Sequence record: KX828711
DNA from: Shigella phage SH7
Reading direction: 5' to 3' (one strand)
DNA: 64,000 nucleotides
A model generated the notes under the pieces. That model worked only from the letters and a program-made list of their open reading frames with translations. It was not told the origin of the DNA and made no database searches. The translations under genes and the position numbers were made by a program. Positions 15,220 to 46,130 of the stretch are shown here, piece after piece (positions within the stretch are counted from its first letter, which is position 1; each line of letters begins with the position of its first letter).

Positions 15220-16394
15220 TGAGTATGTTGCAACGCCCCGGATATCCAAATCTCAGCGTTAAATTATTTGATAGCTACGACGCTTGGAGTAATAATAGAT
15301 TTGTTGAATTAGCTGCTACTATTACCACATTAACTATGCGTGACTCTCTTTATGGTCGAAATGAAGGAATGCTACAATTTTATGATTCTAAAAACATTCA
15401 TACAAAAATGGATGGAAATGAAATAATTCAGATTTCTGTAGCTAATGCAAATGATATTAATAATGTTAAAACACGAATTTATGGATGTAAGCATTTTTCC
15501 GTGTCAGTAGATTCAAAAGGTGATAACATCATTGCTATTGAATTGGGAACTATTCATTCTATAGAAAATCTTAAATTTGGTAGACCGTTTTTCCCTGATG
15601 CAGGTGAATCTATAAAAGAAATGCTTGGTGTCATTTATCAGGATCGCACATTATTAACTCCAGCAATAAATGCTATAAATGCTTATGTTCCTGATATTCC
15701 ATGGACTAGCACATTTGAAAACTATTTGTCCTATGTAAGAGAAGTTGCTCTAGCTGTAGGAAGTGACAAATTTGTATTTGTATGGCAAGACATCATGGGA
15801 GTTAACATGATGGACTATGATATGATGATAAATCAAGAACCATATCCAATGATTGTCGGCGAGCCATCTTTAATAGGTCAATTCATCCAAGAATTAAAAT
15901 ACCCATTAGCATATGATTTCGTTTGGTTGACTAAATCGAATCCTCACAAACGTGACCCAATGAAAAATGCTACTATCTATGCGCATTCATTTTTAGATTC
16001 TTCATTGCCAATGATTACTACAGGAAAGGGTGAAAACTCTATTGTAGTGTCAAGGTCAGGTGCTTATTCTGAAATGACTTATAGGAATGGATATGAAGAA
16101 GCTATTCGTCTTCAAACTATGGCGCAATATGATGGCTATGCTAAATGTTCTACTGTCGGTAATTTTAACTTGACTCCTGGTGTTAAAATTATTTTTAATG
16201 ATAGTAAAAACCAATTTAAAACAGAATTTTACGTTGATGAAGTTATCCATGAATTATCCAATAATAATTCAATAACTCATCTATATATGTTCACTAATGC
16301 AACGAAACTGGAAACAATAGACCCAGTTAAGGTTAAAAATGAATTTAAATCTGATACTACCACTGAAGAAAGTAGTTCTTCCAATAAGCAATAA
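15219..16394 (+). CDS. 27: baseplate hub protein gp27
   Basis: 391 aa (T4 gp27 length). Confidence 0.9.
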
Positions 16395-28013: not shown

Positions 28014-28474
28014 AGAGAGTCTCTTAATAGGTTTAACACATCAATAAATTCAGCTTCAGTTAGTATTGTATCATCTTTTGTTAGACCACTAGCCATGCTG
28101 TGCTTCAAAACTTTTCCTTTCGAGGCTTGTAATGCATCACGAAAGCCCTTGTTTTGGATCGCTGCCTCAAAATACGCATTTGTGTATAATTCTTTCCAGG
28201 CTGGGGAGTATCTTGAAAACGGAACTCCAAGCCAGAAGAGGGTCCCACGGTCCTGAGCTCTAGTATAAGACCTTCCAGCTTGTTGGGCGGCAAGCCCGGA
28301 TAACCCAAATATACGTCTTTGTTGTTCAACATTTTTCACCTTACATCCTTGGAGGAATCCTTCGAGACCTCCAAATTGAATGCCATCCATAACGAAAGGC
28401 CAATAGGCGAAATTACTTAATGCACATGATGGCCACCTAAAATTACTTCTAATCTCTAACTCAGACATTTTCAA
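28010..28474 (-). CDS. NADAR/YbiA-like (DUF1768) protein
   Basis: LSNFAYWPFVMDG...EGFLQGCK pattern resembles YbiA FSNFAAWPI...EHYFQAQK. Confidence 0.6.
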   Translation of the reverse strand: MKMSELEIRSNFRWPSCALSNFAYWPFVMDGIQFGGLEGFLQGCKVKNVEQQRRIFGLSGLAAQQAGRSYTRAQDRGTLFWLGVPFSRYSPAWKELYTNAYFEAAIQNKGFRDALQASKGKVLKHSMASGLTKDDTILTEAEFIDVLNLLRDSL

Positions 28475-28667
28475 TGCTTATAATTTCAACATCAGCCCAA
28501 TGACCATAGTTTGGTAGACGAAATTCAACTGGCCAGTCACTGCCTTTTTCTAATATAATAGACTTAACTTGCGGTTCTTCATGTTCATCAGTATATGGAT
28601 TTTTATCTGTTACTTTATATGTGACCTTAATGTACTGAATTCCAAAAATCTTATTAATTATATTCAT
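28461..28667 (-). CDS. hypothetical protein
   Basis: 68 aa ORF in overlapping-gene series. Confidence 0.5.
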   Translation of the reverse strand: MNIINKIFGIQYIKVTYKVTDKNPYTDEHEEPQVKSIILEKGSDWPVEFRLPNYGHWADVEIISIENV

Positions 28668-28861
28668 ACTAATTCCTTTAATCCGTAAATAGGAGATAAT
28701 TCATCACCCATACGAAGGTCTTCATTTCCATCTACCCAGGAAACAATATAAGCCTCTTTTATTTGAACACCACTCCATTTAAATGGAGGTAGAACCTTAG
28801 AAATTAATCCAGGTATACCAACTCCCTTTAATTCAACAGTTTGACCTAAAAAGAATTTCAT
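28664..28861 (-). CDS. hypothetical protein
   Basis: 65 aa ORF. Confidence 0.5.
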   Translation of the reverse strand: MKFFLGQTVELKGVGIPGLISKVLPPFKWSGVQIKEAYIVSWVDGNEDLRMGDELSPIYGLKELV

Positions 28862-29148
28862 CAGAACCTCATCTGAAAGCCGTGTGATTTAACATTACCG
28901 CCGCCAATATCAGAAATATTAATTTCACGCGCAATTGAAGGGTCAATGTCAATTTCACGATTAAGTTTAGCGATAGCTAAAGTATCACGCCCATTTACTG
29001 TACGGAATTCTAAAGGACAAACCACATCAACATAATTTTTAATCGATTCACTGGTAGGTTGCAAATGAGCAGGAAGGTCTTTAGGCGCCTTAGAGAAAAC
29101 AACTTCACAGAAATTTTTGCGGGTATCAAAATAAGTAGTCATAAACAT
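28861..29148 (-). CDS. hypothetical protein
   Basis: Likely start ATG 29148 (MFMTTYF) after GAGGAAAA; track N-extension runs through a hairpin. Confidence 0.5.
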   Translation of the reverse strand: MFMTTYFDTRKNFCEVVFSKAPKDLPAHLQPTSESIKNYVDVVCPLEFRTVNGRDTLAIAKLNREIDIDPSIAREINISDIGGGNVKSHGFQMRF

Positions 29149-29165
29149 AGTATTTTCCTCAGTAA

Positions 29166-29179
29166 GGGGCCGAAGCCCC
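29166..29179. promoter_or_regulatory. intergenic GC hairpin (ggggc-CGAA-gcccc)
   Basis: Same hairpin sequence as 8684-8697. Confidence 0.45.
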
Positions 29180-29188
29180 TGTTTTATT

Positions 29189-29554
29189 TTAAATATCAAA
29201 TTCGTTAAGAACTACATCAAAGATTGCTTCAAGATGCTCAGGTTTAGCTCTGTTACTCAGAATATGACGAATCCAAGTTTTAACCAGAAGCTTACGATTA
29301 ACGCCATTCCAGCAAGGATGAGTCCCTAAATCACGTTGACGAAAATCATCATCCAAAGCGATTTTGAAGTTGGAGCCTTCCATTGTGATTGAAACCGTGA
29401 TGCCATTTTCAAATCGCATATAAACGTAGTTAGGAGTCATATACTGTTCAATTTCGCATACTGATCCATTTTGATGTTTCCAAAGGCAGATAGTATCAAT
29501 AGAACCTGCAATACCATTAGAAACATATTTACGTTCAAAGTTGATGTAGTTCAT
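29189..29554 (-). CDS. hypothetical protein
   Basis: 121 aa ORF. Confidence 0.55.
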   Translation of the reverse strand: MNYINFERKYVSNGIAGSIDTICLWKHQNGSVCEIEQYMTPNYVYMRFENGITVSITMEGSNFKIALDDDFRQRDLGTHPCWNGVNRKLLVKTWIRHILSNRAKPEHLEAIFDVVLNEFDI

Positions 29555-29622
29555 TTTTATTCTCCGAGATGTTTAATTGCGGTACAGGTATATAATATCA
29601 TATCCTGTACCAAAGTAAACAA

Positions 29623-29955
29623 TTATTTTACTACTTTCCAATGCTTCATATCAAGTTTACCAACTTTTTTCATCTTCTCAATTAAGCGTTCGGCACGTTG
29701 GCGAGCTGTAACATAATACCATTCACCTAATTCATTTTGTTCAATTTTTCCAACGATTACTGTATTCAATTCATAAATCCAACCAGTAAAGAAATTATGA
29801 ACTTGAATTGTAAAGGTGAAATCTGTTCCCATACCTTCTGTTGTTTCTACTTCAATAATATCACCTTCAACTGCCATTAAGAACCACATAGTTTCATCAT
29901 ATTTACCAGTGAAGCATTTAGTTTTAACTGCAGCGTTCAGATTAATCGTTTTCAT
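29623..29955 (-). CDS. hypothetical protein
   Basis: 110 aa ORF. Confidence 0.55.
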   Translation of the reverse strand: MKTINLNAAVKTKCFTGKYDETMWFLMAVEGDIIEVETTEGMGTDFTFTIQVHNFFTGWIYELNTVIVGKIEQNELGEWYYVTARQRAERLIEKMKKVGKLDMKHWKVVK

Positions 29956-30042
29956 TTTATTCTCCTTTGTTTGTGTAAGATAATACTATCACAAAGGAAC
30001 CATACTGTAAACAACTTTATGCAATCTTTGGAAAATAAAAAA

Positions 30043-30060
30043 GGACTCCCGAAGGAGTCC
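30043..30060 (-). terminator. hairpin (ggactcc-CGAA-ggagtcc) downstream of small basic ORF
   Basis: Perfect 7 bp stem. Confidence 0.5.
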
Positions 30061-30065
30061 TCAAC

Positions 30066-30242
30066 TTATGCTTTCTGCTTACCAAAACGAGAAGCATCAT
30101 CTCGAAGAACCGCACGTGCTCGACGCATGATCTTCTCAACAGTTTGATTGATACGAGAGTTCGACCCACGCTTGTAGCCAGCGCGTTTAGAATCACCAAC
30201 TTTCTTTTCAACTGCTTTCTTTGCTTTAACTTGTTTTGCCAT
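30066..30242 (-). CDS. small highly basic protein, 58 aa
   Basis: Likely start MAKQVKAKK; K/R-rich throughout. Confidence 0.5.
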   Translation of the reverse strand: MAKQVKAKKAVEKKVGDSKRAGYKRGSNSRINQTVEKIMRRARAVLRDDASRFGKQKA

Positions 30243-30488
30243 TATAAATTCTCTTTTAAATGAAAATGCAGGACTTATTGGCATTGCCTGCGCAAGCCCT
30301 CAAGGGGAACATAGGTTTTTTGGATATTTAACGACCAGGATAACCATAAACCCGTCATCATTCACATTCAAGAGGTACACCGTAAAACTGCCGGGGTCTT
30401 AAAACTATAATGATTCGCAAATCATTAATCAGACAGTTCGACGGCTCCTCGATTTTAGCTCACGCTAATGCAGTGAATCTCCAATAAA

Positions 30489-30737
30489 TTACTTCAATGT
30501 TACCACAAAGTGACGAACTGCTTTTCGTGCAGCAGAAGCCAAAGGCTTAGCATATTTAAGTTCATCTTTTTCCTGAAGCTCAGCAGCTAATGCAGTTTGA
30601 GCAGGATTCAGATGTTTGAAATAACGCAGGATTTCAAGAGCTTCGGCTTCAACATCAATAGATGCACCATAGTTTTCGTGACCATTATTCCATGCGTTTC
30701 GTTGCAGTTCAAGAGCGTGTTGTAATTGTTTAATCAT
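30489..30737 (-). CDS. rIII: rIII lysis-inhibition accessory protein
   Basis: 82 aa (T4 rIII length); position next to gene 31. Confidence 0.75.
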   Translation of the reverse strand: MIKQLQHALELQRNAWNNGHENYGASIDVEAEALEILRYFKHLNPAQTALAAELQEKDELKYAKPLASAARKAVRHFVVTLK

Positions 30738-30876
30738 TTAAAAATTCTCGTTAGAGATTAAAACTCGGTAGTCACGTTCTTCTGAATTTCATCTTCTTTC
30801 GACAGATCTCTCAGTTGTAGACTACCACGTAGAATTGTTCGGTTAACTTATTATTCCGACACCCAATTCATATTAT

Positions 30877-30884
30877 TATTTATA
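30877..30884 (-). promoter_or_regulatory. late promoter TATAAATA (minus) at 3' end of gene 31
   Basis: Plus tatttata; about 140 nt leader to rIII containing an inverted repeat. Confidence 0.45.
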
Positions 30885-31220
30885 TCACTTATAAAGACAT
30901 GGAATAGCTTTATAGTGACAAGTAACGAATTTTTGTTTAATTTCTTTTGGCTGCTTAAGACCCAGAGCTACAAAAGGATGCGGAACATTTCGAATTTGAC
31001 CAACTGGAAGAGAAGTCAAATCACCAACTTCGCAGAAACCTTCAGGAACATCAGGACCGACAGAGTGAACTACACACAGTTCAGGAACTTCACCTTGAAC
31101 ACGTTTACCGATAATAAGTCCTGATTCTGTAACTTCTTCATCACCGGCTTGTGCAGGTTCAGAAACTAAAATAACATATTCACCGACAGCACGAATTGGT
31201 AGCTGTTGTACTTCAGACAT
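30885..31220 (-). CDS. 31: gp31 GroES-like co-chaperonin for capsid folding
   Basis: 111 aa (T4 gp31 length); position. Confidence 0.88.
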
Positions 31221-31276
31221 CGTTTTTCCTTTTTGTTAACAGATGAATTAATAATAACAAATAATTCTTAAAGCAT

Positions 31277-31585
31277 TTATTTACCAATAAATTGAAGCAA
31301 ATGCTCAACTTTCATACCATTAACAGAAATCAATTTGTCAATAGAAAAACCTCGCCATGCACCAAGTTCAACATCAAATACTGGAATCATATCCGTAGAT
31401 TCTTTCCGAGTAGATTCAGTCAATTTACCAGTTTGCATGGTTGGCATAAAATCTGCATCACGAGTACCTTCCATAGTACGAATAGTACCATCAGACTTTT
31501 CAAAAACTACGTTTGAAACACCCATGGACAGTTTAGTTTTCAAAATTTCACGAATTGCTACTTTCTGCTCAGTTGTCAGTTTCAT
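31277..31585 (-). CDS. hypothetical protein (position of 31.1)
   Basis: 102 aa ORF. Confidence 0.55.
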   Translation of the reverse strand: MKLTTEQKVAIREILKTKLSMGVSNVVFEKSDGTIRTMEGTRDADFMPTMQTGKLTESTRKESTDMIPVFDVELGAWRGFSIDKLISVNGMKVEHLLQFIGK

Positions 31586-31822
31586 TTATTTACCTATTAC
31601 AGTTTTAATATGAGTTGTTCCACGTTCTTTAAGAGTGGAAAGCAATTTTTGGCATTTTTCTAAATCAGATTTCCAACTATACGGACTATCAATACAAACC
31701 CAGTTTGACTTATAATACTGCTTCCATTTAGAGAAAAAATACTTCTTATACTCTACAGCAAATGAAATATTCTCGTTGGAATAAGAACTAATTGCTGTGA
31801 GTTGTACCAAACGAAATTTCAT
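31586..31822 (-). CDS. hypothetical protein (position of 31.2)
   Basis: 78 aa ORF. Confidence 0.55.
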   Translation of the reverse strand: MKFRLVQLTAISSYSNENISFAVEYKKYFFSKWKQYYKSNWVCIDSPYSWKSDLEKCQKLLSTLKERGTTHIKTVIGK

Positions 31823-32403
31823 TATTCACCACAGAATTCGTTGATATTTTCCCAATTTAACTTATTCAAGTTTTTCTTAGGAACATTAAACACTTCAATA
31901 CCCGCATTTCGCAGAATATCATCCCAGCCAGGTTTATTTTTATCGTATGTTTCACAATAAACCAACTTTTTAATACCAGATTGAGCTATCGCTTTTGCAC
32001 AATCTGGACAAGGAGAAAGTGTTACATACATAGTAGCACCTTCAATAGAAGAACCATTTCGTGCAGCAAACAAAATTGCATTTAGTTCAGCATGAATTTC
32101 ATTTTTAGACGACCATTCAGAGTGAGCGCTACGGTGTTCTTTCGCCAAGACAAAACGATCAGTTGAACCAAATGATACACATTCAGGCTTATGACCTTGA
32201 ATGATAGTATGTTTAGGCTTATTCAGCAACCAACCTTGCTCGGCAGCATAATCACAGCAATTCACACCGCCTGCAGGCGAACCGTTATATCCAGTAGAAA
32301 TAATACGTCCATTCTTTTCAATTACTGCTCCTACCTTCCAGGAGCAACATTTGGATTCTTGTGATACTAAATATGCAATTTGAAGTACTGTACTCGCTTT
32401 CAT
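31822..32403 (-). CDS. cd: dCMP deaminase
   Basis: 193 aa; zinc motifs HAELNA and SPCPDCAK. Confidence 0.95.
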   Translation of the reverse strand: MKASTVLQIAYLVSQESKCCSWKVGAVIEKNGRIISTGYNGSPAGGVNCCDYAAEQGWLLNKPKHTIIQGHKPECVSFGSTDRFVLAKEHRSAHSEWSSKNEIHAELNAILFAARNGSSIEGATMYVTLSPCPDCAKAIAQSGIKKLVYCETYDKNKPGWDDILRNAGIEVFNVPKKNLNKLNWENINEFCGE

Positions 32404-32738
32404 TTCATAATCACCAGATAAGCAGATTTAGCAGTTTCAACACGATAAATTTCGTGACGAAGTTTAGTTATACTTTTAATAACAGAACTAATTATATTCT
32501 GCCCGTCTTTAAAGCGGTTTTTCTTATCAATAAAAACTGCGCCAACCATCTTTTTGTGAAGCTCAACTGGATACTTCGTCACAATAATAGCATCATACAC
32601 AGAAGGATGAATACTATTCACCAGAGTATCATTCATTAAAGTTATTCTAATGAACTGTGCTGTTTCAGAATCAAGCGCTCTATGATCGCCAGTATCATTT
32701 TCAAGACAATTATCAATTATATCAGTTAAATTCATCAT
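32400..32738 (-). CDS. hypothetical protein (cd.1 position)
   Basis: 112 aa ORF. Confidence 0.55.
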   Translation of the reverse strand: MMNLTDIIDNCLENDTGDHRALDSETAQFIRITLMNDTLVNSIHPSVYDAIIVTKYPVELHKKMVGAVFIDKKNRFKDGQNIISSVIKSITKLRHEIYRVETAKSAYLVIMK

Positions 32739-32974
32739 AGTACGCCATACACCCTTTGTGCTTCAACTAATCCATCAAAATCCAGTTTAAGATGCGATAT
32801 TTGATCGCCATCACCTGGATTCACAATTACTAATACTGAACGAGGAGTTTCGGTAATAACACGAACCGATGTTTCAGGAAATCGTTCAGAAACCTTATTT
32901 ACTAATTCCTGGGCAAATAGTTTAACTTTTTCTTGGAATTCTTTAACAGTAATTGGTTTTTCACTTAGCAGCAT
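32735..32974 (-). CDS. hypothetical protein (cd.2 position)
   Basis: 79 aa ORF with AAGGAG RBS. Confidence 0.55.
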   Translation of the reverse strand: MLLSEKPITVKEFQEKVKLFAQELVNKVSERFPETSVRVITETPRSVLVIVNPGDGDQISHLKLDFDGLVEAQRVYGVL

Positions 32975-33216
32975 GTTGATCCCAGCTCCTTACTTTCAAC
33001 ATTTTTAACTAATTTGACAGAAACTAATTCAGCATCTTGGGTAATCATTACCGGACCTTCTTCATACTCTTCAAGATATTCTAGAGCTTTCTTTTTAGCT
33101 TCTTCCTTCGTATCAGTTTGAGCATAGATATAGAACATACAACCAGTAATACCTACTACTTTCCACTTAATTTCTTTATCAGTTTTAATTTCAAATTTAC
33201 TTACAGAATCATCTTT

Positions 33217-33495
33217 TCAAACTTCTTCGAAAAAAGAATATTCTAACATATAAGCAATTGAAAATAACGGGCTAACTTTATAGGATTCACCCATTACATC
33301 AACAGCTTTATACCAACAATCATCAATTTCGCGTTTAATGCTAATAACATTTTTCGCAGGATCTATTTTTACTTTAAATGAATTTTCTCCAATAAACTGA
33401 GCAATTCGTTTATTAGCCCCGCAAGTTTCATTAAAAATATCTTTATATCCAGCTTTAAAGCGATAAACCTTATCTTCTTCAAACCATTCGCTCAT
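33217..33495 (-). CDS. hypothetical protein; in-frame open continuation beyond its TGA stop (see findings)
   Basis: 92 aa ORF; 80 further sense codons follow the TGA in the same frame. Confidence 0.5.
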   Translation of the reverse strand: MSEWFEEDKVYRFKAGYKDIFNETCGANKRIAQFIGENSFKVKIDPAKNVISIKREIDDCWYKAVDVMGESYKVSPLFSIAYMLEYSFFEEV

Positions 33496-33557
33496 TTCAA
33501 TTTCCTCGTTTGTTTTGGTAGAGCTATAATATCACAACTCTACCGTAAAGTAAACTA

Positions 33558-33833
33558 TTAAATTGCTTTGAATTCTGCTGTCTGCGATTCAAAACGAATA
33601 TCGCCTTTGATAACTAGCTCAGCATCAAGACCGAATACAACAATGATATGCGCGGAACCTGGATACAACGTAATGGCAATAGAATCCACCTGATCTGGAA
33701 GCAAAGTATTCAATACATGAGTCACTTGAGCATGAATTCGAAGCTCAGCTGCGTTATCAAGTTTTTCAAACATATTATTAGCGATAATTTGGCTAAACAC
33801 TACTTCTACGATTTTAGAGTAAGTCGGAAACAT
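33558..33833 (-). CDS. hypothetical protein
   Basis: 91 aa ORF. Confidence 0.5.
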   Translation of the reverse strand: MFPTYSKIVEVVFSQIIANNMFEKLDNAAELRIHAQVTHVLNTLLPDQVDSIAITLYPGSAHIIVVFGLDAELVIKGDIRFESQTAEFKAI

Positions 33834-33835
33834 AT

Positions 33836-34028
33836 TTACCTCACATAATTTTCTTCAAGCCAATCAATAACATCCAAAGCGTTATCAAAAGTTGAACCAT
33901 CTACTCTGTCTTCTGTTTCATAATCAAGAACATCTAAGCCTACTCTTCCATCAACAATAGGCCATAAACAAAATAGATATTTCTTTTCTTTTTCAATTTT
34001 ATCACAAAGATGATAAATCTTTTCTAGG

Positions 34029-34036
<8 letters not shown>
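33836..34036 (-). CDS. hypothetical protein
   Basis: 66 aa ORF. Confidence 0.5.
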
Positions 34037-35426
<1,390 letters not shown>

Positions 35427-35430
<4 letters not shown>

Positions 35431-35657
35431 TTATTTTTCTCAACTAATGATTGAATATAATCATGCAGGTCTTTAGATGCTTTACCCCACTTATTTTGGT
35501 ATTCATTTTTAAGATTAGCACGTGATTGAGCTAATAAAACATCATTAGTTGGAGGTAAAGATTCTAACCGCTGAATCTGACGTCCATAAATCATTGCAGC
35601 CATCTCGGATTCATAAATCAATCCTTTGAGATGTTCAAATTGATGACATGAAATCAT
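35427..35657 (-). CDS. hypothetical protein
   Basis: 76 aa ORF. Confidence 0.5.
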
Positions 35658-35953
35658 TTACATTTATCCTCTTTTAGCTCTTGACGATAATAACATATCA
35701 TAGTTTTCTGATCATGTACATATCGTTTTACATCATTAAGCCAAATACGAAATTCCTGAGAATCTTCAAATGGCATACCGACCCAAGCTTTACCATCGAT
35801 AACTTTAACTTGCCAAGATAATTTAGCTTCGTCATATGACTTTATTTGTACAGGCCAATTAGGATGAACTGTTTCTTTCTTTACTTCTAGAGGCTTTGTC
35901 GAACAACCAGCTAGAAGACCAATGGATAATATTACTGCTGATAGTTTAATCAT
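35654..35953 (-). CDS. outer-membrane lipoprotein, probable o-spanin
   Basis: Signal peptide with lipobox LLAGC; C-terminal cysteines; adjacent to TM/coiled-coil partner. Confidence 0.65.
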   Translation of the reverse strand: MIKLSAVILSIGLLAGCSTKPLEVKKETVHPNWPVQIKSYDEAKLSWQVKVIDGKAWVGMPFEDSQEFRIWLNDVKRYVHDQKTMICYYRQELKEDKCK

Positions 35954-36303
35954 TTAGAAAGGTCCTGGATGTCTTCTGCGAACTTGTTGAAGGAGTTGTT
36001 GATTTGTTTTTCAACCAATCCTGGCTTATGAGCCACCACATCCGCCTTCTTTGCGTCTTTGCGCAGCTTTTCATTTTCACGCTCAATAGCAGCAATTGCC
36101 TCACGATTTTTAGTATTCATCGCATCAATATAATTATACTGAATTCGCAAATTATTTAATGCTAAAGCGTTTTCATTGGCCGTTTTTGTAATTTCTACAA
36201 CAGACGTTTCTAATCTTTCTACCTTATTTTTTAAAATAATAGATGTTCCGCCCAATGCTATTACAATTAATAGCAAACCTGCTGTCGTATTACTTAATTG
36301 CAT
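35950..36303 (-). CDS. N-terminal TM helix plus coiled-coil protein, probable i-spanin
   Basis: AGLLLIVIALGGTSIIL hydrophobic segment then K/E-rich helical region. Confidence 0.65.
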   Translation of the reverse strand: MQLSNTTAGLLLIVIALGGTSIILKNKVERLETSVVEITKTANENALALNNLRIQYNYIDAMNTKNREAIAAIERENEKLRKDAKKADVVAHKPGLVEKQINNSFNKFAEDIQDLSK

Positions 36304-36800
36304 AAAGTTTTAATAACCTCTACAATATCGTCTTGAGAAAGACCGTTAATTAAAATATGATGTTCAGCCGGAGATTTAGAAATTTTAAAGCATGCCTCAA
36401 CATCTTCTGCCATATCCGATGCGCTACGATTTGGATTACTAATTCCAAGGCGGTGTTTTCCCGTCAAAGGATTAACAATAATGTAGCATTTACAGCTATT
36501 GATATGAACATTAGGCTGAGTCTGATTAATGAATACTTCACAATCGTATTTCGCAAGCTGATTTTCTAAAAAGACTTTCATCTCCTCAACTGCATCAGGA
36601 AGCATATCACGGGCTTGCTCAAGACGACGATTTCGATATTCTTTAATGGTCGTTTTCCGCTTGACTTGCTTTGCTAAATCTTTCTTAAGATCAGTGATAT
36701 ATCCAACTCGACGATTTCCTTTGAATACAGAAATCCCATCTGTAGTATCACCGTATGCTTCAACGACCATTTCAGTAGTAATAAGCTGTAAATCCATCAT
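36294..36800 (-). CDS. alc: Alc (host transcription unfolding/termination on dC-DNA), by position
   Basis: 168 aa ORF between spanin genes and rnlA. Confidence 0.65.
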   Translation of the reverse strand: MMDLQLITTEMVVEAYGDTTDGISVFKGNRRVGYITDLKKDLAKQVKRKTTIKEYRNRRLEQARDMLPDAVEEMKVFLENQLAKYDCEVFINQTQPNVHINSCKCYIIVNPLTGKHRLGISNPNRSASDMAEDVEACFKISKSPAEHHILINGLSQDDIVEVIKTLCN

Positions 36801-44068: not shown

Positions 44069-45097
<1,029 letters not shown>

Positions 45098-45764: not shown

Positions 45765-46130
45765 CTACTTTTTGAAAGTTTTTCGCAAAATTTCAATGAT
45801 TTCATCTACATTGTTTTCGTCAACAATGCAGTGAATTTTCGTTACGCCAGAAACCTTGTCTTTAACTTCATCTTCTTCAGAAGTTGGTTCTTTATACTCA
45901 CGAAAACAATGAAATTCATCTTCGCAGACGTTAAAGTAAAAATGCTTTCCATTTGCGCATTCAATGTGTTTTATTACTTTAAATCCGTCAGCAAAGAAAG
46001 ATTCTTTAACTTCAAACCATCCGCCATTTTCTTGAATAATTTTAACTATTGATGAATTAGAACGTGGGCGATAACTAATAAATGTATCAATAAGTCTTGG
46101 AACAAGCTCATACTTTTTGCCATTATACAT
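45765..46130 (-). CDS. hypothetical Cys/His-containing protein
   Basis: 121 aa; HIECANGKHFYFNVCEDEFHC. Confidence 0.5.
   Translation of the reverse strand: MYNGKKYELVPRLIDTFISYRPRSNSSIVKIIQENGGWFEVKESFFADGFKVIKHIECANGKHFYFNVCEDEFHCFREYKEPTSEEDEVKDKVSGVTKIHCIVDENNVDEIIEILRKTFKK

Follow-up and report, generated by a model that had tools for sequence, protein, structure and literature searches.

GoF of phage T4, Frd.2 and MotB.1 are early, dispensable proteins for which the prediction is an N-terminal domain with an LSm/SH3-like fold, a bent antiparallel beta-sheet of five strands, joined through a flexible linker to a C-terminal domain that differs among them (Kim et al. 2025, PMC12152347). 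The N-terminal domain of GoF comprises residues 1-91, and RNA-related activity has been demonstrated for the GoF(D25Y) mutant only (PMC12152347). The gene described here is related to GoF at the profile level over its N-terminal 90-100 residues, and it too appears to be early and dispensable, but its C-terminal domain differs from those of GoF, of Frd.2 and of MotB.1 and shows only a weak, sub-threshold similarity to DUF4288. Its closest counterparts are RB32ORF214c, AR1_225 and the T6 homologue, which belong to phrog_3710. The copy in the window, by which we mean the whole 64-kb stretch of phage DNA that was analysed, resembles these genes in its position between cd.3 and cd.2, its promoter, its Shine-Dalgarno (SD) sequence and its overlap with cd.2. 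In the RB32ORF214c/AR1_225 group the gene has 175-176 uninterrupted codons, whereas the copy in the window is a disrupted allele that has been annotated as 92 aa.

Premature stops of this sort have well-known parallels. The classical amber and opal alleles of non-essential T4 genes likewise contain one premature stop and are tolerated through dispensability, and the opal ones leak to some degree in E. coli. The stop in the window differs from these alleles in that it involves two adjacent base changes and arose naturally or during isolation or propagation, with no mutagenesis. Phage Qbeta likewise has a UGA with a long in-frame extension open behind it, and read-through of the coat gene there produces A1. 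The Qbeta stop and extension are conserved and required, whereas the stop described here is private to one lineage and is replaced by Gln in the relatives.

The interrupted reading frame

The minus-strand ORF at 33495..33217 contains 92 sense codons (33220..33495) and closes with TGA at codon 93 (33219..33217), followed by A; the ORF list and the translation agree with the original prediction on all of these coordinates. In an exact sequence look-up the 92-aa product matched SH7_0209 from Shigella phage SH7, and the window is this phage or a very close twin. Past the TGA the same frame stays open, as had been noticed, although for 83 sense codons (KDDSV...GSTCC, codons 94-176, 32968..33216) and not for the 80 first counted. 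It is closed by TAA at 32967..32965, the original stop of the intact gene, which lies within cd.2, 7 nt after the cd.2 ATG (32974..32972), in the overlap ATGCTGCTAA; the closing stop does therefore overlap the start of the next gene, as predicted. Without the premature TGA the frame would encode 176 aa.

Given the base composition of the window (36% GC), the probability that a stop is followed by 83 or more codons free of stops is ~0.003, and in shuffled windows about 22 of 8866 stop-to-stop intervals were as long as 83 codons. The view that such a run is unlikely to be fortuitous was thus well founded, and the coding status of the 83-codon stretch is settled by the fact that it is coding sequence in relatives.

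Gene neighbourhood and expression signals

The minus strand carries here an early region of the T4 type, cd-pseT, in which pseT (301 aa), cd.5, cd.4 and cd.3 are followed by the interrupted ORF, cd.2, cd.1 and cd (193 aa). The ORF list and the annotation of relatives identify the upstream neighbour as a cd.3 homologue of 91 aa (33558..33833, minus strand) and the downstream neighbour as a cd.2 homologue of 79 aa (32735..32974, minus strand), the latter also by alignment with T4. Upstream of the interrupted ORF, a promoter scan found a sigma-70/T4-early-like promoter, TTTACT-17-TATTAT with a TG extension (33526..33554, minus strand). A 7-bp inverted repeat, GGTAGAG...CTCTACC (33517..33544, minus strand), holds the -10 hexamer in its loop and is identical in T4, and the SD sequence GAGG (33504..33507, minus strand), seen in the sequence and in the T4 alignment, is situated 8 nt 5' of the ATG. 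The whole promoter stretch is nearly identical in an alignment of the window with T4, and the T4 record places the early promoter Pe133295 there, between cd.2 and cd.3. A note in the T4 record on the inverted repeat region mentions a 14-nt stretch that had earlier been reported as its own inverted complement.

T4 lacks the interrupted ORF, and there a promoter, hairpin and SD sequence that are almost the same feed cd.2 directly. When positions 32972-33495 of the window are aligned with T4 (L011:2730-2870), the whole ORF appears as an exact ATG-to-ATG insertion or deletion. Since the T4 signals lead straight to cd.2, the extra ORF is an ATG-to-ATG cassette that is present in some relatives only. 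The cd.2 start normally overlaps the intact upstream gene, and in the window it is found 249 nt from the last translated codon; loss of this stop/start overlap is a possible side effect of the premature TGA. Initiation of cd.2 is probably retained, because the gene has its own SD sequence, AAGGAG (32991..32986), 11 nt upstream.

Orthologues and the difference at codon 93

One continuous CDS of 528-531 nt is annotated at this position in AR1 (AR1_225, 176 aa), RB32 (RB32ORF214c, 175 aa) and ESh31, and the T6 homologue BBF63635.1 is a single protein of 175 aa. Comparison of the orthologous region showed that the relatives have one intact gene of 175-176 aa with CAA at the stop codon, and not two separately conserved genes with a stop between them. 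CAA (Gln93) is present in every relative examined, namely AR1, RB32, ESh31, three IMG/VR contigs and two metagenome contigs, so that codon 93 of the window departs from its orthologues by a pair of neighbouring substitutions (CA>TG). Among 300 phage records, the closest match to a 161-nt query reached 98.8% identity, which corresponds to exactly the two codon-93 mismatches. Exact 63-mers with TGA, CGA or TAA at codon 93 were found in 0 of 299 phage records, and neither of the possible intermediate alleles, CGA and TAA, was found among the ~300 relatives. No repeat of at least 11 nt that might have served as template for the CA>TG change was found in the window. The new dinucleotide of this tandem change is the reverse complement of the old one.

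The protein encoded in the window is identical to AR1_225 and to its ESh31 counterpart at 175 of 176 residues, codon 93 being the sole difference, and tblastn showed 100% protein identity over codons 94-176 in more than 100 records. With AR1_225 matched at every other residue, the lesion is recent. A per-codon comparison revealed that the differences among relatives are overwhelmingly synonymous on both sides of the stop, indicating that purifying selection acts on the two halves as on a single protein. The more distant Dhakavirus homologue, QL01 gp219 (184 aa), occupies the same position in the gene order and aligns across the stop site into the C-terminal part with 30% identity. As the relatives encode one gene and the Dhakavirus homologue aligns across the stop, the single-ORF architecture is old and ancestral. 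Of the options considered in the original prediction, the one that agrees with the CAA codon and the single 175-176-aa CDS of the orthologues is a gene of some 173 aa hit by a nonsense mutation, with the length corrected to 176 aa.

The ORF is contained in 300 of the 497 phage records that match the cd.3-cd.2 region. The family is effectively confined to Tequatrovirus, and its Dhakavirus relatives were reached only via tblastn and profiles. A phmmer search of 1.84 billion representative proteins returned nothing beyond fragments of the same family, a word-indexed protein search returned one main cluster, and a literature search by locus tags gave no match.

Family assignment and domain layout

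AR1_225 matches phrog_3710 with an E value of 4.4e-55, the 92-aa part does so with 8.6e-41, and T4 GoF matches the same family with 8.1e-12. Weaker matches connect AR1_225 to phrog_622, the GoF/Frd.2 family (E 1.3e-4), and to the goF family phrog_2980 (E 4.6e-3), which is also matched by the Dhakavirus homologue (E 8.8e-7). Using hhalign, residues 2-101 of the family could be aligned with residues 2-99 of GoF (E 6.5e-5, probability 64%), and BLASTP of the Dhakavirus protein against GoF gave 2e-4. Direct hhalign comparisons of the family profile with Frd.2 and with MotB.1 showed no similarity; the family link, as far as it can be traced in sequence, runs via GoF and the shared PHROG profiles only. 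By these matches the gene is a paralogue of the GoF/Frd.2 family, with an N-terminal domain predicted to be LSm/SH3-like.

In a family alignment (A3), residues 1-92 are conserved, residues ~93-109 are not, and conservation resumes at the invariant K110-W111-K112-V113. An N-terminal domain, a linker and a variable C-terminal domain can thus be recognized in this family as in GoF, and these blocks, taken together with the 1-91 extent of the GoF domain, place the codon-93 stop at the boundary between domain and linker. AlphaFold2 modelling of the intact protein gave low confidence, with a pLDDT of 40 for the sequence alone and 50 with a 15-sequence alignment; the latter model contains strands at residues 9-13, 40-45, 50-55, 60-66 and 89-92, and is too unreliable to be trusted. 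A Pfam scan at E<=1 found only the sub-threshold DUF4288 similarity, and neither a profile search of PDB sequences nor a PADLOC scan gave anything significant.

The BASEL records MZ501096, MZ501113, MZ501050 and MZ501098 label the ORF 'putative homing endonuclease'. We rejected this label, as the Pfam scan (E<=1) and the PDB profile search revealed no nuclease domain, be it HNH, GIY-YIG, LAGLIDADG or similar, and the relationship found was instead to GoF.

Other disrupted alleles

The gene is absent from T4 and from about 40% of Tequatrovirus records, and where it is present it is not always intact. In the Logan/ENA proteins P0003 and P0023, a frameshift in a homopolymer T6 run at about codon 88, some 5 codons before the SH7 stop, leaves essentially the N-terminal domain alone; the outcome is like that in SH7, and the mechanism, a homopolymer frameshift, is different. 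Phage Bas45 PaulHMueller (bas45_0051, L013:1201-1458, 85 aa) and P0018 (86 aa) have an in-frame deletion of codons 15-104 (90 codons) that removes the N-terminal domain, so that mostly the C-terminal domain remains, and the Logan/ENA protein P0008 has lost 22 codons within the C-terminal domain. Bas45 and P0008 therefore differ from SH7 in carrying in-frame deletions and not a nonsense codon. The alleles of P0003/P0023, Bas45 and P0008 are independent disruptions of the same accessory gene. Taken together, its absence and its disruption elsewhere suggest that the gene is dispensable, presumably also in SH7 itself.

A probable recent nonsense allele

We consider it very likely that the TGA is a recent, lineage-private nonsense mutation (CAA>TGA) in the RB32ORF214c/AR1_225-type accessory early gene between cd.3 and cd.2. 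In the SH7 lineage, codon 93 would have changed from CAA (Gln) to TGA via two adjacent transitions, an event that is less common than a single substitution. Translation would begin from the gene's own early promoter and SD sequence and terminate at codon 93, and the predicted product would be the N-terminal domain alone, with a calculated mass of ~10.8 kDa. The linker and the C-terminal domain would be lost, and codons 94-176 would now be untranslated or translated in traces, save for passive near-cognate readthrough of the UGA by tRNA-Trp, at the percent level at most. Hosts other than K-12 are probably tighter on UGA readthrough. The 83 downstream codons would still be open because the mutation is too recent for decay, no further changes having followed yet, and the phage would tolerate the lesion because the gene is dispensable, as its absence from T4 and the frameshift and deletion alleles elsewhere suggest. 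As a nonsense allele of a dispensable phage accessory gene, it is ordinary, an instance of a well-known kind.

It is also conceivable, though in our opinion decidedly unlikely, that the change represents adaptive shedding of a domain and not neutral decay. The N-terminal-only GoF-like (LSm-like) protein would then be functional by itself, and either the loss of the C-terminal domain or the ~2% isoform would benefit SH7 on Shigella, for example through escape from a host factor that recognises the C-terminal domain. If this were true, the independent T-run frameshift allele, which likewise stops at the edge of the domain, would represent convergence.

Accuracy of the stop codon

A nonsense mutation, the reading we prefer, presupposes that the TGA is real, and the original prediction had named a sequencing error alongside a mutation in its first option. 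In that case the phage would truly have CAA and the gene would be intact. The uniqueness of the TGA among ~300 relatives speaks for such an error, and the sole other TGA is found in a contaminated draft assembly that may share its stock or its sequencing facility with SH7. Against this, SH7 was sequenced from Nextera XT libraries on an Illumina MiSeq with coverage averaging 1369x, and the genome was assembled de novo (PMC5238451). Consensus mistakes in data this deep are seldom dinucleotide substitutions outside homopolymers.

The second assembly is contig FACG01000098.1 (GCA_900013605.1; also an IMG/VR entry), an 8.4-kb T4-like contig that corresponds to positions 28250-36534 of the window. 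It has the same TGA and is 99.95% identical over 6.2 kb, and it was assembled separately and differs from the window at several other positions. This contig belongs to the WGS project of a Clostridioides difficile, and its 5' end is the untrimmed Nextera adapter GTCTCGTGGGCTCGGAGATGTGTATAAGAGACAG. For these two reasons we rejected it as an independent natural isolate and regard it as contaminating phage DNA, probably introduced in the laboratory or on the sequencer from SH7 or a sister phage stock. It supports the TGA base call, but not as an independent natural isolate.

As a control, 112 mechanical AR1 ORFs, each 70 aa or longer, were compared with the whole 64-kb window, AR1 being the closest relative. 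A mid-gene stop was found in one real gene only, at the SH7_0209 locus, and the other flagged ORFs were antisense pseudo-ORFs or over-extended AR1 start codons. AR1-annotated N-termini are interrupted in the window in gene 28, at codon 8 (~16297-16320, plus strand), and in frd, at codon 4 (~44870-44883, minus strand), which points to over-extended start annotation in AR1 and not to lesions in the window. Because only one real gene in the window has a mid-gene stop, a consensus error is improbable, and with the sequencing depth and the second TGA assembly taken into account, we judge an error decidedly unlikely.

Possible translation past the stop codon

Given a genuine TGA, the open frame behind it could be used by programmed readthrough; readthrough of the stop was another option of the original prediction. 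A short product and a C-terminally extended product would be made in a set ratio, as with Qbeta A1. The stop falls exactly at the boundary between domain and linker, and nothing interrupts the frame downstream. In E. coli UGA leaks more than the other stops, and a K-12 reporter showed readthrough of ~2-4% (a basal level of ~2% at 37 °C, rising to 4% at 25 °C, in the context of the reporter and not that of codon 93; PMC10570021). A programmed stop is contradicted by the comparison with relatives, none of which conserves it: all have CAA, and exact 63-mers with TGA were found in 0 of 299. The 106 nt around and after the TGA (33225..33120) are unstructured (z = 0.30 against shuffles), only the 3' A of a stimulatory context is present, and ARAGORN detected no tRNA in the window. 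The intact downstream frame, moreover, is fully explained by recency and by its 100% identity to intact orthologues elsewhere. Programmed readthrough thus has support neither from conservation of the TGA nor from RNA structure on its 3' side, and we regard it as very unlikely.

The downstream part could also be a gene in its own right, with the 92-aa ORF as one gene and a separately translated 57-aa protein, starting at Met120 or at some other restart, as the second. The 57-aa ORF that the original prediction had pointed out (MFYIYAQ..., 33138..32965, minus strand) does exist, an automatic gene caller has called it, in FACG01000098.1 only, and the natural Bas45 allele keeps mostly the C-terminal part. 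Its status as an independent gene is not borne out. The Met120 ATG lacks an SD-like sequence in the interval 5-12 nt upstream, Met120 aligns with Lys or Ile in the Dhakavirus homologues, and a protein starting there would miss the invariant K110-W111-K112-V113 that opens the C-terminal block. For a restart elsewhere, the stretch from the TGA to Met120 offers no ATG, GTG or TTG in frame, and a separate gene is annotated in no relative. We therefore judged the 57-aa ORF, which appears in the mechanical ORF list, to be a non-gene, and find the two-gene arrangement highly improbable.

That the TGA is read as a sense codon (Trp or Sec) in the phage-host system is effectively refuted, since nothing more than the single in-frame TGA speaks for it, while the standard code gives cd (193 aa) and pseT (301 aa) at their T4 sizes (582 and 906 nt), this is the sole in-frame stop among the real genes of the 64-kb window, no tRNA (ARAGORN) or SECIS-like structure is present, and the hosts are Shigella and E. 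coli.

Implications for annotation

The importance of the nonsense allele is slight beyond annotation. SH7_0209 is better described as a nonsense allele, the truncated 5' part of a gene of the RB32ORF214c/AR1_225 type, than as an ordinary gene for 92 aa, and the 57-aa ORF is best left out of the annotation. Two by-products may be of wider use. The natural alleles that retain only the N-terminal domain (SH7 and the frameshift) or mostly the C-terminal domain (Bas45) could help to dissect both domains, and a widespread accessory gene of the T-even phages becomes assignable to the GoF/Frd.2 family with its predicted LSm-like fold. A second GoF-family paralogue is present in the window, a Frd.2 homologue of 121 aa at 45765-46130 on the minus strand (phrog_622, E 7.9e-34).
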